A DNA stretch of 16,659 nucleotides from Oscillatoria sp. SIO1A7 (GTDB taxonomy: Bacteria; Cyanobacteriota; Cyanobacteriia; Cyanobacteriales; Laspinemataceae), in the NCBI GenBank assembly GCA_010672965.1, contig JAAHFN010000034.1, positions 64,001-80,659 of the forward strand. The letters run 5' to 3'. Both the position numbers and the translations under genes were made by a program. The notes under the pieces were generated by a model, which saw nothing but the letters and a program-made list of their open reading frames with translations, searched no databases and was not told the origin of the DNA. The first letter of the stretch is position 1. The number at the start of each line of letters is the position of its first letter. This document shows positions 1 to 15,453 of the stretch, piece by piece.

Positions 1-2300
1 TCCGGGAGAGGATGACCGTATCCGACTCCGACTCCCTAACCCCGGCTTCTTTGGTGAATCCCAAACCATTGGTAGCGGCAATAAAAGAATTCTTTGGCTC
101 TTCTCAGCTATCGCAGTTCATGGACCAAACCAACCCCCTAGCAGAGCTAACCCACAAGCGGCGCTTGTCTGCATTGGGGCCAGGAGGATTGACGAGGGAA
201 CGAGCGGGGTTTGCAGTGCGAGACATACACCCCTCGCACTATGGCCGGATTTGCCCGATAGAAACGCCAGAAGGACCAAACGCAGGGTTGATTGGCTCTC
301 TGGCAACTCACGCTCGGGTGAACAACTACGGTTTTATAGAAACCCCCTATTACCCGGTGGAAAACGGGCGGGTAATGTTCGAGACCGAGCCCAAGTTTCT
401 CAGTGCCGACGAGGAGGACGACCTGCGGGTGGCTCCTGGGGACGTTTCTTATGACGAAAACGGTTACATTTTGGGGGAAACGGTGCCGGTGCGCTATCGC
501 CAGGATTTCACGACCACGACCCCAAATCAGGTGGACTATGTGGCGGTCTCCCCGGTGCAAATCATTTCTGTGGCCACTTCGCTGATTCCGTTTTTGGAAC
601 ACGACGATGCGAACCGGGCGCTGATGGGCAGTAACATGCAGCGGCAGGCGGTGCCCCTATTGAAGCCGGAGCGTCCTTTGGTGGGGACGGGTCTGGAGGC
701 CCAAGCGGCGCGGGATTCCGGGATGACTGTTGTTTCGCGGGTGGATGGGGAGGTTACTTTTGTAGATGCGACCAGAATCCGGGTGAAGAGTACCGGCGGG
801 GAGGAAATCGAGTATAAGTTGCAGAAGTATCACCGCTCGAACCAGGATACTTGTCTGAACCAGCGGCCGATTGTGTTTGAGGGGGACGAGATAGTAGTAG
901 GTCAAGTGCTGGCGGATGGTTCTGCGACGGAAGGGGGCGAGCTGGCGTTGGGGCAAAACGTGCTGGTGGCCTATATGCCTTGGGAGGGCTACAACTACGA
1001 GGACGCGATTTTGATTAGCGAGCGTCTGGTGATAGATGACGTTTATACCTCCATCCATATAGAAAAGTTTGAAATCGAAGCTCGCCAAACCAAGCTCGGC
1101 CCGGAGGAGATTACGCGAGAAATTCCTAATGTAGGGGAAGATGCCCTGCGCCAGTTGGACGAGACGGGGATTATTCGCATTGGAGCTTGGGTGGAGTCGG
1201 GAGACATTTTGGTGGGCAAGGTGACGCCGAAAGGGGAGTCGGACCAACCTCCCGAGGAGAAGCTGCTGCGGGCGATTTTCGGGGAGAAGGCTCGGGACGT
1301 GCGCGATAATTCCCTGCGGGTGCCCAATGGGGAGAAGGGTCGGGTGGTTGACGTGCGCGTGTTTACCCGAGAGAAGGGAGACGAGCTGCCCCCGGGAGCG
1401 AATATGGTGGTGCGGGTCTATGTGGCGCAGAAGCGGAAGGTCCAGGTGGGGGATAAGGTGGCCGGCCGTCATGGGAATAAGGGGATTATTTCCCGGATTT
1501 TGGCTCGGGAAGATATGCCCTATTTGCCCGATGGAACTCCGGTGGATATCGTGCTGAATCCTTTGGGGGTGCCTTCCCGGATGAATGTGGGGCAAATTTT
1601 TGAGTGCTTGCTCGGCTGGGCTGGGGAGCAACTCAATACGCGGTTTAAGGTGGTGCCTTTTGACGAGATGCATTCTCCGGAGATGTCTCGGCAGACGGTT
1701 CACGGGAAGTTGATTGAGGCGGGGCATAAGAAGAATAAGCCCTGGCTGTTCGACCCCTCCTATGCTGGCAAGACTTATGTCTATGACGGCCGTACTGGGG
1801 AGCCTTTCGATCGCCCGGTTACGGTGGGCAAGGCTTATATGCTGAAGCTGGTTCACCTGGTGGATGATAAAATCCACGCCCGCTCTACCGGCCCTTATTC
1901 TTTGGTTACGCAGCAGCCTTTGGGTGGCAAGGCACAACAGGGGGGGCAGCGCTTTGGAGAGATGGAGGTTTGGGCGCTGGAAGCTTTTGGTGCCTCCTAC
2001 ACCCTGCAAGAGTTGCTTACGGTTAAGTCGGACGATATGCAGGGTCGCAACGAAGCTTTGAATGCGATCGTTAAAGGCAAAGCGATTCCCCGTCCGGGAA
2101 CTCCAGAATCGTTCAAGGTGCTGGTGCGGGAGCTGCAGTCCCTGTGTTTGGATGTATCCGTCTATAAACTGCAGGAAACGGAGGACGGCTCTATCGGCGT
2201 TGAAGTGGATTTAATGTCAGAACGGGCAAACGCTCGCACCCCCTCTCGCCCAACTTATCAGTCCATTTCCTCCAGAAACGAGTCTTTTGAAGAGGAATAA
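1..2300 (+). CDS. rpoB: DNA-directed RNA polymerase beta subunit, C-terminal ~760 aa. The gene starts upstream of the window; the frame is open from base 3
   Basis: Translation contains RpoB hallmark blocks: [34 protein letters not shown], the rif-cluster region [19 protein letters not shown], and NMQRQAVPL...[12 protein letters not shown]. The ORF is 2.3 kb and uninterrupted. Stop at 2298-2300. Confidence 0.95.
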
Positions 2301-2304
2301 GTGT

Positions 2305-2432
2305 AAGTTAAAAGTCAAAAGTTAAAAGTTAAAAGTTAAAAGGGAGTTGGTATTTTTAAGTTTTCGCTTTTAACTCACTGTTAGCTATCGCTCTTAACTT
2401 TTGACTTTTAACTTTTAACTTTTGACTTTTTT
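2305..2432. repeat. Large imperfect palindrome in the rpoB-rpoC1 spacer, built from AAAAGTT/AAAAGTC heptamer tandem repeats. Left arm ~2305-2342, right arm ~2393-2432
   Basis: Left arm aagttaaaagtcaaaagttaaaagttaaaagttaaaag is near-perfectly complementary to right arm cttaacttttgacttttaacttttaacttttgactttt. The same heptamer recurs at 7935-7959 and 11547-11680. Confidence 0.8.
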
Positions 2433-2462
2433 GGTCGCAATTATCATTTAAGAAAAAACATA

Positions 2463-4502
2463 ATGGCAAAAGTCGAGCAGCGCTTTGATTATGTAAAGAT
2501 TGGGATTGCCTCCCCGGAGCGAATTCGCAAGTGGGGGGAGAGAATACTTCCCAACGGACAGATGGTGGGGGAGGTTCTCAAGCCCGAGACGATAAACTAT
2601 CGCACCCTCAAGCCAGAGATGGACGGTTTGTTTTGCGAGCGCATTTTCGGTCCGGCGAAGGATTGGGAATGCCATTGCGGCAAGTACAAGAGGGTTCGCC
2701 ATCGCGGTATTGTCTGCGAAAGGTGCGGGGTGGAGGTGACCGAATCTCGGGTGCGCCGCCATCGCATGGGATACATTAAATTGGCGGCTCCGGTTGCCCA
2801 CGTCTGGTATCTGAAGGGGATTCCCAGTTATATTTCGATATTGCTGGATATGCCCCTGCGCGATGTGGAGCAAGTGGTTTATTTTAATGCTTACGTCGTT
2901 CTCAGCCAAGAAAATCCGAAGGGTCTTTCCTATAAGCAGCTTTTGACGGAGGATGCTTGGATGGAGATTGAGGATAAGATTTACGGAGACGACCCGGAGT
3001 ATGAGAAGGTGGAGGTGGGTATTGGCGCGGAAGCCCTGCAACGGTTGCTGCAAGACCTTCAGTTACCAGAGATTGCGGAGGAAATCCGGGAGGATATTGC
3101 TAATTCTAAGGGGCAAAAGCGCGCTAAGCTGATTAAGCGGCTGCGGGTTATCGATAATTTCATTGGCACGGAGAGTCTGCCGGAATGGATGGTGCTGTCG
3201 GTGGTTCCGGTGATTCCTCCAGACCTGCGCCCTATGGTGCAGTTGGATGGCGGTCGCTTTGCTACTTCGGATTTAAACGACCTCTATCGCCGGGTGATTA
3301 ATCGCAATAATCGCTTGGCTCGCTTGCAGGAGATTTTGGCACCGGAGATTATTATTCGCAATGAGAAGCGGATGTTGCAAGAGGCGGTGGATGCTCTGAT
3401 TGATAACGGACGGCGGGGGCGGACTGTGGTGGGGGCTAATAACCGACCTCTTAAGTCTTTGTCGGATATTATTGAGGGCAAGCAAGGTCGCTTTCGCCAG
3501 AATTTGTTGGGCAAGCGGGTGGATTATTCGGGGCGATCGGTTATTGTGGTCGGCCCTTCTTTGGAGATGCACCAGTGCGGTTTGCCCAGGGAGATGGCGA
3601 TCGAGCTATTCCAGCCTTTTGTGATTCACAAGTTAATCCGCCAGAATTTGGTGAACAATATTAAGGCCGCCAAAAAACTGATTCAGCGCAACGACCCCAA
3701 TGTTTGGGACGTATTGGAGGAGGTGATTGAGGGGCACCCGGTGATGCTGAACCGCGCTCCCACTTTGCACCGTTTGGGGATTCAAGCTTTTGAGCCGATT
3801 TTGGTGGACGGTAGGGCTATTCAGCTCCATCCTTTGGTTTGTCCCGCTTTTAATGCGGACTTTGATGGAGACCAAATGGCGGTACACGTTCCCCTTTCTT
3901 TGGAGTCTCAAGCGGAGGCGAGGATGCTGATGTTGGCCTCCAATAATGTGATGTCTCCTGCCACGGGCACTCCGATTATTACTCCTTCTCAGGATATGGT
4001 TTTGGGTTGCTATTATTTGACGGCGGAAAATCCTCTGGAACAGGAGGGAGCCGGTCGCTATTTTGCTGGCTTTGACGATGCGGTTGTTGCTTACCAGCAA
4101 AAGGAAATTGGCTTGCACTCTTATGTTTGGGTGCGCTTGGATGTTAATAGTAAGGTGGAGACGGACAATCCCGAGGAGCCCCCAGAGGAGACGGTGCTTT
4201 CTGATGGCAGCCGGATGTTGGTTTATTGGGCGAGAAGCTCTAGCGCCGTTCGTCCCGATGCTTTTTTTCAAGATGAGAAAGATAAGCCGGAGATTGTGTC
4301 CGCTCCCGATGGTTCTAGAGTTAAGCGCTATAGCCTTTATCGGATTCACGAAGATGCTGAAGGACAGATGAGCGCGCTGTTTATGAAGTCGCGCCAAACC
4401 CGCTGCCTTCCTAGTGGCGAGGTTGTTTCTCAGTACGTTCTGACTACTGTCGGTCGGATTATTTTTAATATGGCGATCGATGAGGCTTTGGAGTTGGCGT
4501 AA
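2463..4502 (+). CDS. rpoC1: DNA-directed RNA polymerase gamma subunit, the N-terminal half of the split beta-prime
   Basis: Zn-finger [20 protein letters not shown] and the catalytic [16 protein letters not shown] motif are present. The gene ends at ~680 aa instead of continuing to a full-length ~1400-aa beta-prime, which is the cyanobacterial/plastid split arrangement. ATG at 2463, preceded by an A-rich leader. Confidence 0.95.
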
Positions 4503-4517
4503 TCTAGTTAAAACATT

Positions 4518-4543
4518 GGGTTCTGCTGAAACCCGGTTTTTTT
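4518..4543 (+). terminator. Putative intrinsic terminator 16 nt after the rpoC1 stop
   Basis: gggtt-ctgctga-aaccc is a 5-bp stem with a 7-nt loop. It is followed by gg ttttttt (T7). Confidence 0.4.
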
Positions 4544-4564
4544 GACAATACCTTCGCCATTTTA

Positions 4565-4671
4565 TCGTAGGGAGCGGTTGAACGAAGTGTTGGCATAGCC
4601 AACTCGTGCGAGTAACCCAACGTCAAACCAACGTATTTGCGTTTGTTTCGTGCCTCAACCGCTCCCTACGA
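4565..4671. repeat. 17-bp perfect inverted repeat (tcgtagggagcggttga / tcaaccgctccctacga) enclosing ~73 bp
   Basis: Arms at 4565-4581 and 4655-4671 are exact reverse complements. The interior is non-coding. Confidence 0.7.
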
Positions 4672-4844
4672 GATCGCTCCAGAAACCCAGAAAACCAGAA
4701 ACCCGGTTCTTTGTAACGAGCGTTTCTCACCAACAAGTTAGTTTCTTCTACAAAACCTGCAAGATGGGTATTACAAAGGAGTTTGCGATTCTGGCTCCAG
4801 TTCCCTCAGTCCACCTTGCTTCTGCAATGGAAACTTGCGATCGG

Positions 4845-4940
4845 CGAAGCGCACCTATCCGCGAAGCGCACCTATCCGCGAAGCGCACCTATCCGCGAAG
4901 CGCACCTATCCGCGAAGCGCACCTATCCGCGAAGCGCACC
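4845..4940 (+). repeat. Tandem array of a 17-bp unit (cgaagcgcacctatccg), ~5.7 copies
   Basis: Exact repeats at 4845-4861, 4862-4878, 4879-4895, 4896-4912 and 4913-4929, plus a partial sixth. The array is absent from the paralogous copy at 7339-7706. There are no spacers, so it is not CRISPR. Confidence 0.9.
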
Positions 4941-5052
4941 TATCGCAAGGGTCAGGTAGCTTTTGGCAGCAGTGCTTGGGAGTTATTTCGTCAAGTGGAG
5001 CAGATGAAAAAGAGCGATTTAGTTGAGGTTTTCATCTACCCTTCCCTGGTCG

Positions 5053-5167
5053 GTTATGGCGGGAGCATTTCAATTTCGTATCTAGCCGCCTAACGCCTAA
5101 AGGCGCGGCTACACAAACAAAGCCCTCCGGGCTGTCCCGTTACAAAAGTGAAATGCTCCCGTTATGG
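5053..5167. mobile_element. MITE-like insertion: 101-bp element (5060-5160) with 12-bp perfect TIRs gggagcatttca / tgaaatgctccc, flanked by the 7-bp direct repeat gttatgg (5053-5059 and 5161-5167)
   Basis: The paralogous copy at 7548-7560 reads ggtcg-attctgg-caaacc with no insertion, an empty-site comparison. The interior has short palindromes (agccgc..gcggct, agccc-tcc-gggct) and no ORF. Confidence 0.8.
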
Positions 5168-5402
5168 CAAACCTATAGAGATGAAAGCTAGCTGGCACGG
5201 GTAGGTATGCCGGAGACAAGGGATTTCGTCCCCAATCCGCACAAGAGCGAGAAACCTTGGGCTATATTTTGGGATGCGAACTAACAGTTTGTCAAAGACG
5301 ATAAAGGAAAGACAAGCCACGCATTGGGAGAGGCTTAGCGCATAGCGGGCAACGATCGCGATCGTAACGAACAATATAACAATTGAACGGCGATGCCACC
5401 CT

Positions 5403-5603
5403 TTACAATTCATAGTCAGACTGGGCGATCGCATTAACAATTGCTTGGCGGCACCAGGCAGACTGGCTTATCCCTTGCTGTTGGGATAGAAAGATAACCG
5501 CTTCTTTTTCCTTTGGAAGCAGTTTAACGCTTTGGTGTTGTTTTTTCTCTCCGTCATCGGGTACAAACCATGTTTTTTTTCCGTTGGCTCCTCTTGGATC
5601 CAT
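5403..5603 (-). CDS. Ribbon-helix-helix (CopG/ParD-like) DNA-binding protein, 66 aa
   Basis: The segment SVKLLPKEKEAVIFLSQQQGISQSAWCRQAIVNAI fits the RHH beta-strand/helix/helix pattern: polar residues alternating in the strand, G-x-S/T at the helix-helix turn, and a basic residue at the N-cap. ATG at 5603. No partner toxin ORF lies downstream. Confidence 0.55.
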   Translation of the reverse strand: MDPRGANGKKTWFVPDDGEKKQHQSVKLLPKEKEAVIFLSQQQGISQSAWCRQAIVNAIAQSDYEL

Positions 5604-5649
5604 CGTCTAAGCTCCAAATCGATTAACGCTTCATCAATTTTACATTAAT

Positions 5650-5669
5650 TTGCCGGGTGTTTGCGGCAA
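5650..5669. promoter_or_regulatory. Palindrome ttgccg-N8-cggcaa, ~50 nt upstream of the RHH gene start; a candidate operator
   Basis: 6-bp perfect inverted repeat at 5650-5655 and 5664-5669 in the spacer between the phosphoesterase stop and the RHH start. Confidence 0.25.
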
Positions 5670-5809
5670 ACTCATGTATAAATTTAAAACTTATGTCACA
5701 AATAAAACTGGTCAATTTATACCAGATTTGGTATCAGACATAGAAAAGCGATGGGAGCAAGCCATTGCCAGCCTGTGTCCGGCATAAAGCCTGTGCTTCC
5801 AGTTCCCGA

Positions 5810-6709
5810 CTAATTCGCACCACCAAAAGGAGCGCGATCGGCCAAAAACCACCAAGGTATCGCCGTTACGTCATTACGCCCCAGGTTCCCCAGACCGAAA
5901 TTGACTTCGATTGAGCGTAGCATGCTGTAATGGTTATAGGGTATGGTCACGGTCGTGCCGGCCTGCAGCATATCCCCGATCAGCAGGGTGTAAATGCCGT
6001 AGGGTTCTTCGTAGGGTAGGACCTCATCAAAGGTAATCACGATCGGGGTTTCCGGCGGAAATTTCGACACGGGGTCGTCGCCTAAGAACGCGCTCAGAAA
6101 CGCTGCGATGTTCTCGATTTTGAGGCGGTTGCGATCGTCGGGGTGTCCCGCTAGCTGTTTGGGCGTCAGGCTGTGCCCGTCGTCGATCAGGTTGGGCGTA
6201 TACCAACTGTAATTGGGTAGCTTGCCGTTGGCGAGATCCTGCTCGAACTCGGTGGCGTTGACGATGTTTGCCAGTCGTTCCGGGTTGGTAACAATATTGG
6301 GATACGAAAGAAAGGGAACGTGCTTGCGTGCGAAGTAGCCCTCGTCCGGCGGTATGGTACCGGGATACCCCTGCGCAGTTTCAGTCGTGTACCCGGCAGG
6401 CAGGTCTTGGGCGTAGCACCGCCAGGTAAGATTTTGGGCATCCAGCAGATCCACGATATTGGAGATCGGCACTGATGACTGCGGGTTATCGATCCATTGT
6501 ACATAACCCGGTTCATCGTTACATATACCAAAGGTGTCGCCGCCGATCGAGAGGACGTAGTTGGGCTGCGATGGATGGGTCACACCCATACTGCCGCTTA
6601 AAAAGACCCCCTTTGTGCGTAGTGCATTCATATAAGGATTGGCAAGCACGTTTGCGCGTGTCGCATTTTCCAGCATCACGATCGCGATGCGTTCAAAGGC
6701 AATACTCAT
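5810..6709 (-). CDS. Phosphoesterase family protein (PF04185-type, acid phosphatase / phospholipase C-like), 299 aa
   Basis: The N-terminal block IAIVMLEN...NPYMNALRTKGVFLSGSMGVTHPSQPNYVLSIGGDTFG matches the conserved VVVMEN....APY.N.LA..GA......THPSQPNY signature of this family. ATG at 6709, with GGAG 7 nt upstream on the minus strand. Confidence 0.75.
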   Translation of the reverse strand: MSIAFERIAIVMLENATRANVLANPYMNALRTKGVFLSGSMGVTHPSQPNYVLSIGGDTFGICNDEPGYVQWIDNPQSSVPISNIVDLLDAQNLTWRCYAQDLPAGYTTETAQGYPGTIPPDEGYFARKHVPFLSYPNIVTNPERLANIVNATEFEQDLANGKLPNYSWYTPNLIDDGHSLTPKQLAGHPDDRNRLKIENIAAFLSAFLGDDPVSKFPPETPIVITFDEVLPYEEPYGIYTLLIGDMLQAGTTVTIPYNHYSMLRSIEVNFGLGNLGRNDVTAIPWWFLADRAPFGGAN

Positions 6710-7141
6710 GAGTAGCTCCTGTTAAGTGGGTAGGCAAAATATATAAATTGGGTGCGGCTCTTTGAAAAGACGCTTATCCCAATATAATAAGGAGAAGCTC
6801 AATTTTGCCAAAATACAGCAATCATTTTTCATTTAATTGAAATCAAACACAATTCGGGTGTTAACTAAACTAATTAGGGCTTGCTGTATTAATCTAAAAC
6901 CCAAGCGTAGTAAGGATTTTGGGCTTTTTAACAGCCGTAAAAATGCAAGGATTTTGGGCGATCGCGTGGCCTTAATCCTTGCAATATCTCAATTAAAGGA
7001 CCCTTTGAGGCGATTCCGGGGACTTTCGCCACTATTTTCCAGGCTTATGGCCTCAGAACTGCCTCAATGCGAATTATTCAGTAAGCCCTAATTATTTTAC
7101 AAAAAATAAAGTTAGATTTCCGCTCTCTGCGTAAGTTCTAT

Positions 7142-7203
7142 ATTCAAAACAACTACCTTGACAGGCTACCAGCTAGTAGCCTGTCAAGGTAGTTGTTTTG
7201 AAT
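7142..7203. repeat. Perfect 28-bp inverted repeat with a 6-nt loop (attcaaaacaactaccttgacaggctac / cagcta / gtagcctgtcaaggtagttgttttgaat)
   Basis: Arms at 7142-7169 and 7176-7203 are exact reverse complements. It lies in AT-rich non-coding DNA between the phosphoesterase promoter region and element copy B. Confidence 0.85.
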
Positions 7204-7338
7204 AATTTTGCGATTTCCCCCAAGCTGCTTAATCCCCGATGCCCTTCGGCTCTTCGGCTCTTCGGCCCATTTTGGTAAAAAGCGATTGATTTTGCCACCC
7301 AGCTTGTAACATGGTGGCAGTAGTTTTTAGTTAATTTA

Positions 7339-7706
7339 TTCTACAAAACCTGCAAGATGAGTATTACAAAGGAGTTTGCGATTCTGGCTCCAGTTCCCTC
7401 AGTCCACCTTGCTTCTGCAATGGAAACTTGCGATCGCGAGGGCCAAGTAGCTTTTGGCAGCAATGCTTGGGAGTTATTTCGTCAAGTGGAGCAGATGAAA
7501 AAGAGCTATTTAGTTGAAGTTTTCATCTACCCTTCCCTGGTCGATTCTGGCAAACCTATAGATATGAAAGCCAGTTGGCACGGTCTCTATCTCGATCATG
7601 TCCCCTCTCGCCGGGGTAGGTATCCCGGAGACAAGCGATTTCGTCCCGAATCCACTCTCAGCGAGAAACCAACTTGGGCTATATTTTGGGATGTCTGCGA
7701 ACTAAC
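7339..7706 (+). repeat. Copy B (intact) of the ~360-bp dispersed element
   Basis: See copy A. Direct orientation, 2.6 kb apart. The pair brackets the RHH and phosphoesterase genes. Confidence 0.85.
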
Positions 7707-7824
7707 GGAACTTTCCGAGGAGGAGCATATACCCCTATCAAAATTTCGGGGGACGGATAAAAAATCCGATTATGCCCTGCGCACTGCTCCCAATAGCCCA
7801 ATTATAGTCCAGTATCCCTTCTAA
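7357..7824 (+). CDS. Hypothetical 155-aa ORF carried by element copy B; unknown function, may not be a real gene
   Basis: Intact ORF MSITKEFAILAPVPSVHLASAMETCDREGQVAFGSNAWELFRQ... The matching frame in copy A is broken. Of the four nucleotide differences between copies in the shared 5' part, three are non-synonymous, so purifying selection is not evident. Confidence 0.3.
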   Translation: MSITKEFAILAPVPSVHLASAMETCDREGQVAFGSNAWELFRQVEQMKKSYLVEVFIYPSLVDSGKPIDMKASWHGLYLDHVPSRRGRYPGDKRFRPESTLSEKPTWAIFWDVCELTELSEEEHIPLSKFRGTDKKSDYALRTAPNSPIIVQYPF

Positions 7825-7934
7825 TAAAGTAAGCTATTAGCTGTCACTGCTCGGCGGTCAGCTAAAGTCCTGCCATACGCACGCACGAGCGTTTTGAAAC
7901 AGTCCGTTCTTTTAATCGGTAGTGCTATATTTCA

Positions 7935-7959
7935 AAACTTAAAACTTAAAACTTAAAAT
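7935..7959. repeat. AAAACTT heptamer tandem repeat (~3.5 units), same family as the rpoB-rpoC1 palindrome
   Basis: aaaacttaaaacttaaaacttaaaa, overlapping the stop of the 296-aa minus-strand gene. Confidence 0.8.
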
Positions 7960-11351: not shown

Positions 11352-11510
11352 GAAGCTTGCGAACTATAGCAGTTCTCAAATTGATGTAAGGTGTCTGGGG
11401 CGAAGCATCCCAATATGATAATCCCCGTTCTGTAGCAGAGACAGTCTTGGGGATGCTGTCGCCCCTACCAGATCGTTTATTACACTTATTTGAGAAACGC
11501 TATATCGATC
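11352..11510 (+). repeat. Copy 1 of a ~140-bp nested-stem repeat; candidate structured RNA or MITE core
   Basis: Aligns to 15241-15410. Conserved 5' block gttctcaaattgatgtaaggtgtctggggcgaagcatcYcaatatga, a variable 30-34-nt centre, then ggggatgctgtcgcccctac ... gatcgtttattacacttatttgagaaacgctatat. The outer arm ttctcaaat pairs with atttgagaa; the inner arm ggggcgaagcatc pairs with gatgctgtcgcccc. Confidence 0.6.
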
Positions 11511-11631
11511 TGAAAATTCTCAAGCTTGCGAACGATAGAGCGGGAAACTCAAAACTTAAAATTGAAAAGGCTCAGCTTTCAGCCAATTTGCTTATGCGCT
11601 CAATGCGCAGGCTGCGCCAACAGCCAGTTTG

Positions 11632-11652
11632 CTGACCGCTGACCGCTGACCG
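11632..11652. repeat. CTGACCG heptamer x3 (STRR-like)
   Basis: ctgaccgctgaccgctgaccg, followed by more AAAACTY heptamers (11660-11680). Confidence 0.7.
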
Positions 11653-11681
11653 CTTCCTCAAAACTCAAAACTTAAAACTAT

Positions 11682-12170: not shown

Positions 12171-12310
12171 GGGGTGTGGGGTGTGGGGTGTGGGGTGTGA
12201 ATAATTGCTTTTCTTAACTTTTCACCCTTCACTTTTCACTTTTCACTCCTCCGCTCTTCCCAATTTCCCAATTCGCCCATTCCCACACCCTACACCCTAC
12301 ACCCTACACC
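12171..12310. repeat. G-quadruplex-competent (GGGGTGT)x4 array at 12171-12199, with a partially complementary (CACCCTA)x3-4 array at 12282-12310. The arms are separated by TTTTCAC and CCCAATT heptamer repeats. The whole forms a large imperfect palindrome in the nirB-nirD spacer
   Basis: ggggtgtggggtgtggggtgtggggtgtg opposite cccacaccctacaccctacaccctacacc. Each unit pairs with one G-T mismatch, which would be a G-U wobble only in plus-strand RNA. ttttcac x3 and tcccaatt x2 lie between the arms. Confidence 0.8.
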
Positions 12311-15143: not shown

Positions 15144-15196
15144 GTAGGGGGCTTGGGTTGTAGGGTGTGGGGTGTGAGGTGTGGGGTGTGGGGAGG
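15144..15196. repeat. Second G-rich GGGTGTG-type array, upstream of nirB
   Basis: gtagggggcttgggttgtagggtgtggggtgtgaggtgtggggtgtggggagg. It is preceded by the hairpin gccccc-gagccgta-gggggc (15133-15152). Confidence 0.75.
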
Positions 15197-15206
15197 TTGC
15201 CAGACC

Positions 15207-15453
15207 CAGGACTTATGCAAATTGTCAGATCTAAAGCTGTATATAGCGGTTCTCAAGCGGTTCTCAAATTGATGTAAGGTGTCTGGGGCGAAGCATCTCA
15301 ATATGAGGGTTGCCGTTAGGAGCGCGCGAGATTGTCCAAGGGATGCTGTCGCCCCTACGTTTTCCAAAGCGATCGTTTATTACACTTATTTGAGAAACGC
15401 TATATATGGTGCGCCGCCTAGCACCCTACAAATAGGGTCTTTGCGTAAGTCCT
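15207..15453. mobile_element. 247-bp MITE-like element with 15-bp TIRs caggacttaYgcaaa / tttgcgtaagtcctg, carrying copy 2 of the ~140-bp nested-stem repeat (15241-15410)
   Basis: The left TIR at 15207-15221 and the right TIR at 15439-15453 are reverse complements with one mismatch. There is no ORF. The interior is homologous to 11352-11510. The element sits 7 nt before the permease stop codon at 15461-15463. Confidence 0.65.

Follow-up and report, generated by a model that had tools for sequence, protein, structure and literature searches.

The 16,659-bp window analysed here (the whole stretch of DNA, from Oscillatoria sp. SIO1A7) carries a single copy of a 100-bp non-coding MITE. We put at about 85% the reading in which this element belongs to a widespread cyanobacterial family, is mobilised in trans by the transposase of a short ISKra4-family IS, and has inserted into a damaged paralogue (copy A) of a conserved 155-aa gene, the intact version of which (copy B) is present in the same window (Table 1). 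The element is a MITE by its size, its lack of coding capacity, its TIRs and target-site duplication (TSD), the contrast between a filled and an empty site, and ends shared with an IS. The importance of the case is modest: it is a clean, internally controlled MITE insertion in a marine filamentous cyanobacterium. The element is of a known and ordinary type, no new mechanism is revealed, and what is new is the assignment of a transposase family.

Table 1. Positions in the window of the element, its duplicated target and the two copies of the 155-aa gene.
Feature	Position	Strand	Basis or remark
MITE, non-coding, termini GGG...CCC	5061-5160		repeat finder, 12-mer search, folding, family census
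TSD, left copy, 8 bp, GTTATGGC	5053-5060		identical to 5161-5168; homologous to ATTCTGGC at 7544-7551
TSD, right copy, 8 bp, GTTATGGC	5161-5168		identical to 5053-5060
Left TIR, GGGAGCATTTCAATTTCGTATCTA	5061-5084	+	first 12 nt perfect; 11/13 and 15-16/20 identity with ends of short ISKra4-family IS
Right TIR, reading inward GGGAGCATTTCACTTTTGTAACGG	5137-5160	-	12/13 and 17-18/20 identity with ends of ISNsp5, Microcystis FD4, Acaryochloris and other IS
Internal G+C-rich hairpins	5083-5133		folding; TAGCCGC...GCGGCTA at 5083-5111, AGCCC-TCC-GGGCT at 5121-5133
Copy A, partial damaged paralogue of the 155-aa gene	4736-5285	+	ORF ends at TAA 5091-5093 within the MITE
Copy B, intact 155-aa conserved hypothetical protein gene	7357-7824	+	ancestral state of the target; 28 homologues, synteny with L009/L010
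Empty (uninterrupted) site in copy B, ATTCTGGC	7544-7551		same sequence in orthologue L007

The filled site reads, in order, GGTCG, GTTATGGC, GGGAGCATTTCA ... TGAAATGCTCCC, GTTATGGC, AAACC, and the homologous stretch of copy B (7540-7556) reads GGTCG ATTCTGGC AAACC without interruption, as does the orthologue in a genome that is ~92% identical (L007). That a MITE insertion is caught here as a filled/empty pair had been proposed in a preliminary description of this DNA, and the TIRs, the TSD and the uninterrupted site of both copy B and its orthologue bear this out. The strings quoted there lie where it places them, and its perfect 12-bp TIRs also stand: a search of the window for the 12-mer GGGAGCATTTCA gives two positions and no others, 5061-5072 on the plus and 5149-5160 on the minus strand. 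Aligned from their GGG termini the TIRs match at 12/12 positions and at 19/24 overall, and the repeat finder extends the imperfect inverted repeat to ~21 nt (arms 5060-5080 and 5141-5161, 90% complementary). The length of 101 bp and the 7-bp TSD (gttatgg) had to be corrected to 100 and 8 bp, respectively. The offset between copy A and copy B is 2491 nt up to position 5060 and 2383 nt from position 5162, and copy A, having thus 108 extra nt, contains the 100-bp element plus one additional 8-bp copy of the target. The boundaries were placed at 5061 and 5160 because family copies elsewhere all start with GGG and end with CCC, and are mostly flanked by 8-bp duplications.

A perfect 12-nt inverted repeat within ~100 nt is expected by chance ~0.1 times per 16.7 kb, and the abutting 8-bp direct repeat brings in a further factor of 4^-8, so that a chance origin of the combination in the window is excluded. 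The element has no ORF of its own and contains stop codons, including TAA at 5091-5093. Its strand folds with an energy of -50.7 kcal/mol (z = -6.6 versus shuffles), and the hairpin at 5121-5133 is terminator-like on the minus strand. Such a very stable hairpin with a terminator-like stem inside would also suit a palindromic repeat of another kind that is not a DDE element, be it a REP/REPIN doublet moved by a RAYT, an IS200/IS605-type palindrome or a structured small-RNA/terminator module. On the other hand, a stable fold is an expected by-product of inverted ends, while REPINs and IS200/IS605 derivatives produce neither a target duplication nor TIRs of this sort; the 8-bp TSD is present here and TSDs recur across the family (see below), on which ground the REP/REPIN assignment was rejected. 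An Rfam scan of the whole window gave no family at the gathering score, and a tRNA scan of it gave none either. Overall, we consider a palindrome of this kind very improbable.

The target was previously taken for a dispersed element, i.e. for another repeat. Instead, copy A is a truncated paralogue of a conserved protein-coding gene. Filamentous cyanobacteria (Oscillatoriaceae, Coleofasciculus and others) have 28 homologues of copy B, ~150-170 aa long and with identities down to 35%, and the two genes on the 3' side of copy B are the same as in an Oscillatoriaceae MAG (L009/L010); a Pfam scan of the copy B product returned no family. Copy B is a real gene in its ancestral position. The 108-nt segment is absent from all 28 homologues, from copy B and from the L007 orthologue. 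These comparisons bear on the opposite polarity of the event, in which the 108 nt would be ancestral and copy B would have lost them through a deletion between the 8-bp direct repeats (by slippage or illegitimate recombination), an event that leaves one copy of the repeat and resembles an empty site. Against this, the segment is missing in 28/28 homologues as distant as 35% identity and ~150-170 aa long, the closely related genome has the same uninterrupted site, the segment contains a stop codon, and the same termini are found at dozens of unrelated loci next to different 8-9-bp repeats. Together, the homologues, the orthologous site and the family census refute such a deletion in practice, and we give it next to no weight.

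Insertion of the element into copy A is thus retained, with one qualification of how the pair is to be read. The preliminary description regarded the filled and empty sites as direct demonstration of transposition; the site in copy B is indeed uninterrupted, but the comparison is paralogous, and two of the eight target positions differ between GTTATGGC and ATTCTGGC. In five related contigs (L007, L008 and L092-L094, ~89-93% nucleotide identity) rpoC1 is joined directly to the 155-aa gene, and positions 4513-7270 of the window are wholly absent from all five. As these relatives have no orthologue of copy A, the empty site is that of a paralogue, backed by the orthologues of that paralogue, and is not allelic. 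Both copies of the TSD carry the two substitutions of the copy-A type, which places the insertion after the onset of copy A divergence, and the perfect TIR cores together with the perfect TSD suggest that it is fairly recent.

Copy A resembles copy B over only ~28 nt upstream and the first ~115 codons, and bears three lesions: a 17-nt tandem repeat present six times, the 100-bp element and a 32-nt deletion. The element lies at codon 63 (copy-B numbering) and supplies the stop codon of the copy-A ORF, which is deposited in GenBank as a 109-aa hypothetical protein of Oscillatoria sp. SIO1A7 (F6J93_26325). RpoC1 of the window, too, has 100% identity to its counterpart in the SIO1A7 MAG, and the two proteins together assign the window to that organism. 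The tandem repeat (4840-4944; unit ATCCGCGAAGCGCACCT, 6.2 copies, 98% identity) stands where copy B has GCGATCGC (7431-7438); its 102 nt keep the frame and add 34 residues to the ORF. Comparison of 5192-5238 with 7568-7653 shows that 32 nt of copy B and of the L007 orthologue are missing in copy A, and since this loss shifts the frame, it marks copy A as a pseudogene on independent evidence. F6J93_26325 is a pseudogene fragment, its last 11 residues being encoded by the MITE and 34 internal ones by the tandem repeat, and can be flagged as an annotation artefact. The 2.7-kb segment 4513-7270 comprises the copy A fragment, a phosphoesterase-family gene (5810-6709, minus strand) and small ORFs. 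Within it, a 64-nt near-perfect palindrome (7141-7204; 32-nt arms, 97% complementary, no spacer) sits where the related contigs regain similarity (at 7163 for L007 and L008, at 7271 for L092-L094), and a diverged version of it occupies the same place in L007.

Elements with the same termini are found well beyond this genome. In a scan of one genome per species, both exact 12-mers were found 60-90 nt apart at six loci, in Hormoscilla, Prochloron didemni, a Microcoleaceae MAG (two contigs), an unclassified cyanobacterium and a Saprospiraceae MAG. When metagenomes were scanned with the 20-nt degenerate end GGGAGCATTTCAHWTTYGYA, at least 80 loci came up; about half of the 80 listed are chance matches inside conserved genes and the remainder are small elements. 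By taking all end pairs 60-320 nt apart in other cyanobacterial genomes and metagenomes we arrived at a census set of 38 elements, free of redundancy and 73-198 bp long. A perfect 8-bp TSD flanks 13 of these, a perfect 9-bp TSD five more, and an 8- or 9-bp TSD with one mismatch another four; the duplicated sequences of these 22 copies are all different, and control 8-mers displaced 10 nt outward match at 5/8 positions at best. The remaining 16 show no recognisable TSD and are old copies or rearranged ones. The preliminary description had made its reading depend on there being other copies and a TIR/TSD pattern reproduced elsewhere, and both were found.

The census elements fall into sub-families with unrelated, strongly hairpinned cores, which have only the termini in common (GGG(A/T)GCAT(T/C)TCA followed by ..TTTG(C/T)AA, or 5'-GGGWGCATYTCA..TTTGYAA). 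A core like that of the window element occurs only in L004 (Hormoscilla) and, in part, in L045. Dispersed copies were seen on at least 15 contigs of metagenome Ga0209812 and on two contigs of one Microcoleaceae MAG. A BLAST search of 72,556 plasmids with the element and two other sub-family ends gave no copies, only A+T-rich noise; the 20-nt end had no match in viral contigs, and the 12-mer GGGAGCATTTCA retrieved only unrelated primers from full-text literature.

Some copies have peculiarities of their own. An extra 25-30-nt insert, a small repeat of the GCGTAGCCTGTGCG... type, is present in the cores at L028 9425-9561, L038 2018-2152, L041 4494-4630, and twice in L085 (3666-3800 and 5653-5786), which suggests still smaller mobile repeats nested in MITEs. 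At L017 1161-1249 and L053 2964-3099 the 8-mers on either side of the element form inverted repeats instead of direct ones (GGAACAAC/GTTGTTCC and TTTAAACG/CGTTTAAA, respectively). The copy in the Saprospiraceae (Bacteroidota) MAG (L002 3747-3843) is 97 bp long, shares the 12-nt termini, has a 22/24 inverted repeat and lacks a TSD; horizontal transfer, a binning error or convergence could each account for it.

The prokaryotic Mutator-like IS (IS256, ISKra4, ISMich2 and others) generate 8- or 9-bp duplications (PMC3942029), and in ISKra4-group entries of the supplementary table of that paper the ends start with GGGTGC. On the basis of these two features we searched for a partner in the ISKra4 family. 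ISCasp3 from a Calothrix plasmid has ends GGGTGCGGCTC and a 9-bp TSD, and its transposase, used as a TBLASTN query against plasmids, led to plasmid pA of Kovacikia minuta, which carries an IS whose ends read GGGAGCATGTCAC and whose TSD, GGAGGTGAA, is 9 bp long. In the unannotated record of this plasmid (L100, 660-3203) a 1389-bp ISKra4-family IS with an 8-bp TSD (GTTTCGGT) is nested in the transposase gene of the other IS. With the nested IS subtracted, the Kovacikia IS is 1147 bp long, and a -1 shift at a TTTTTTA slippery site links its two ORFs. The 355-aa protein obtained by fusing them reaches 286 bits against NF033572 ("ISKra4 family transposase", cut-off 205). At E<=1e-10 this protein has 2932 homologues (all those named among the 120 best listed are cyanobacterial), and homologues are present on 28 cyanobacterial plasmids.

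The ends could be read for 19 copies of such short ISKra4-family IS, which represent 14 sequence types and are 1147-1305 bp long. The left end is GGGAGCATCTCACTTTTTTGCAAA in ISNsp5 of Nostoc sp. PCC 7120, GGGTGCATCTCACTTTTGCGAATG in ISOni1 and two further copies of Oscillatoria nigro-viridis PCC 7112 (both names being those of PGAP), GGGAGCATCTCACTTGTGCAATGA in the Microcystis FD4 IS, GGGAGCATGTCACCTTTGCAGATT in the Acaryochloris IS and GGGAGCATCCCATTTTTGCAAAAA in the N. flagelliforme IS. A TSD flanks 10 of the 19 copies (8 bp in four and 9 bp in six), i.e. the two lengths are the same as in the MITEs. The right end of the window element, read inward (GGGAGCATTTCACTTTTGTAAC), agrees with the ends of these IS at 12/13 and 17-18/20 positions, versus 5-7/13 for three other ISKra4-family subgroups. 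Other MITE ends (GGGAGCATCTCA... and GGGTGCATCTCA...) are identical to the 12-mers of ISNsp5 and ISOni1, and the N. flagelliforme IS end (L118) agrees with the MITE ends of L017 and L018 at ~22/24 positions in a count by eye, not a computed one. It is through this near-identity of ends that the cognate family can be named: with good confidence, the probable cognate transposase is of the ISKra4 family, short two-ORF group. In their small size, two ORFs and -1 frameshift, these IS agree with the ISMich2 group as it has been described (Guerillot et al. 2014, PMC3942029).

The preliminary description left the cognate transposase unidentified and proposed a check for an IS with matching termini. 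The first statement is now superseded at the family level, by the ends and by the TSD lengths; the check produced short ISKra4-family IS that match at 12/13 positions, and none with exactly GGGAGCATTTCA. This 12-mer has T at position 9, and in all 19 IS copies read this position is G or C. An ISKra4-family transposase was found neither in the window nor at the ~90 loci that carry MITE copies or relatives; the family copies have no transposase next to them, and an all-against-all ORF comparison revealed no repeated one. Beyond ~20 nt at each end, nothing in the MITE resembles an IS; the relation therefore runs through the ends only, as in many other MITEs, and an origin of the MITE from such an IS by internal deletion is unsupported.

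Several candidates were set aside. In a search of the metagenome loci for an IS beside solitary ends, end pairs 1.1-2.3 kb apart turned out to be two MITEs flanking ordinary genes (for instance those for MsrA, a glycosyltransferase and a methyltransferase), and were rejected as IS. An IS6-family transposase near one match (L069/L071) belongs to an element with unrelated ends of its own (GGTATTGACAAG). For the ISKra4-family matches of Gloeothece (L101), Allocoleopsis (ISMic1, L103) and Moorea (L109) either the ends were absent or the element could not be delimited. Among the papers searched, none links MITEs to ISNsp5, ISOni1 or ISMich2.

Duplications of 8 bp are made by several of the IS families catalogued in ISfinder, and no IS that was read carries the very 12-mer of the window element, T at position 9 included. 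One could thus accept the element as a genuine MITE and yet attribute it to a transposase of another family (the IS1595/IS1016 group, IS256 proper, ISL3 or IS6), its likeness to ISKra4 ends being convergent. This we regard as unlikely, given the 17-18/20 match of the window end to short ISKra4-family IS, the drop to 5-7/13 for the other ISKra4 subgroups, the ~22/24 agreement (by eye) between L118 and the L017/L018 ends, and the unusual occurrence of both 8- and 9-bp TSDs among the IS as well as among the MITEs; for IS6 in particular, the element in L071 has unrelated ends.

For the preferred assignment to the short ISKra4 group we infer mobilisation in trans, the presence of a partner IS in the host and the following steps. 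The transposase would be provided by an ISKra4-family IS of ~1.15-1.3 kb and of the ISNsp5/ISOni1 type, with its two ORFs read via a -1 frameshift. Acting in trans, this DDE (Mutator-like) enzyme would bind the ~20-bp terminal repeats, cut at the GGG/CCC ends and insert the element at a staggered break in the target, 8 bp (sometimes 9 bp) wide, the repair of which would leave the duplication GTTATGGC; landing at codon 63 of copy A, the element would have given the ORF its stop codon. IS256-type relatives transpose through a circular intermediate (PMC3942029), and a circular route, which keeps the donor copy in place, would explain amplification of the family.

The short ISKra4-family IS are like the window element in their termini (5'-GGGWGCATNTCAC..TTTGC), their 8-/9-bp duplications and their cyanobacterial hosts. 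They differ in being 1147-1305 bp long and in encoding a frameshifted DDE transposase, whereas the window element is 100 bp long and non-coding and has only ~20 bp per end in common with them; at position 9 of the end the window element has T, and all of these IS that were read have G or C.

The Anabaena MITEs that, by the account of Fewer et al. in 2011, are said to inactivate mcy genes, and those of PCC 7120, reportedly treated by Wolk et al. in 2010, offer one comparison. Like MaeMITEa-h of Microcystis aeruginosa NIES-843 (PMC2779907), they resemble the window element in being abundant, short and TIR-bounded, in inserting into genes, and in their capability to inactivate ORFs or fuse with them; at 127-435 bp these other cyanobacterial MITEs are longer than the window copy, in a comparison made by description and not by sequence. 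Closer in kind is Nezha of Anabaena variabilis and Nostoc sp. PCC 7120 (Zhou, Tran & Xu 2008), a MITE of ~100-170 bp that is summarised in PMC3184786 as having, like the window element, TIRs, direct repeats and a stable fold, as recognised via filled and empty homologous sites, and as tied by shared TIRs to an ISNpu3-like partner IS. Its reference copy, however, has a 10-bp direct repeat, CATTATCTAC (PMC6042816), and the window element has an 8-bp TSD (8-9 bp in its family), for which reason it was not classified as Nezha. The two are set apart by duplication length and by partner (ISNpu3-like versus ISKra4-family). Outside the bacteria, the plant Mutator-derived MITEs (non-autonomous MULE derivatives) likewise have only terminal repeats in common with Mutator-superfamily transposons and make 8-9-bp duplications; they differ by their eukaryotic hosts and much longer TIRs and have no sequence relationship to the window element. 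The parallel between prokaryotic Mutator-like IS and eukaryotic MULEs has been drawn before (PMC3942029).

These comparisons permit a tentative generalisation, which we hold at somewhat short of even odds: the GGGWGCATYTCA-ended elements may constitute a large, undescribed and unnamed pan-cyanobacterial MITE superfamily with several sub-families of unrelated cores, ranging from Prochloron to the Oscillatoriales, the non-autonomous partner of the short ISKra4-family (prokaryotic Mutator-like) IS and a bacterial counterpart of the plant Mutator-derived MITEs. Cyanobacterial genomes are rich in MITEs (PMC11602168), and the probable assignment of a widespread set of them to the ISKra4 (prokaryotic Mutator-like) transposase family should aid repeat annotation and the assembly of such genomes.

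A few further features of the window deserve mention. The genes rpoB and rpoC1 are adjacent (12-4502), and in neither the window nor L007 and L092-L095 is rpoC1 followed by rpoC2; RpoC1 is 679 aa long, versus 622-625 aa in many of the cyanobacterial homologues listed. A second dispersed repeat of ~140-150 nt occurs in two copies (11368-11507 and 15256-15407) with inverted ends AGCRGTTCTCAAAT...ATTTGAGAAACGCT, and is probably another MITE family. Intergenic heptamer arrays (AAGTTAA, AAAACTT, GCTGACC, GGGGTGT and ACACCCT, some of them inverted) lie at 2305-2430, 7934-7958, 11631-11654, 12171-12310 and 15148-15193 and are typical cyanobacterial STRR-like repeats.
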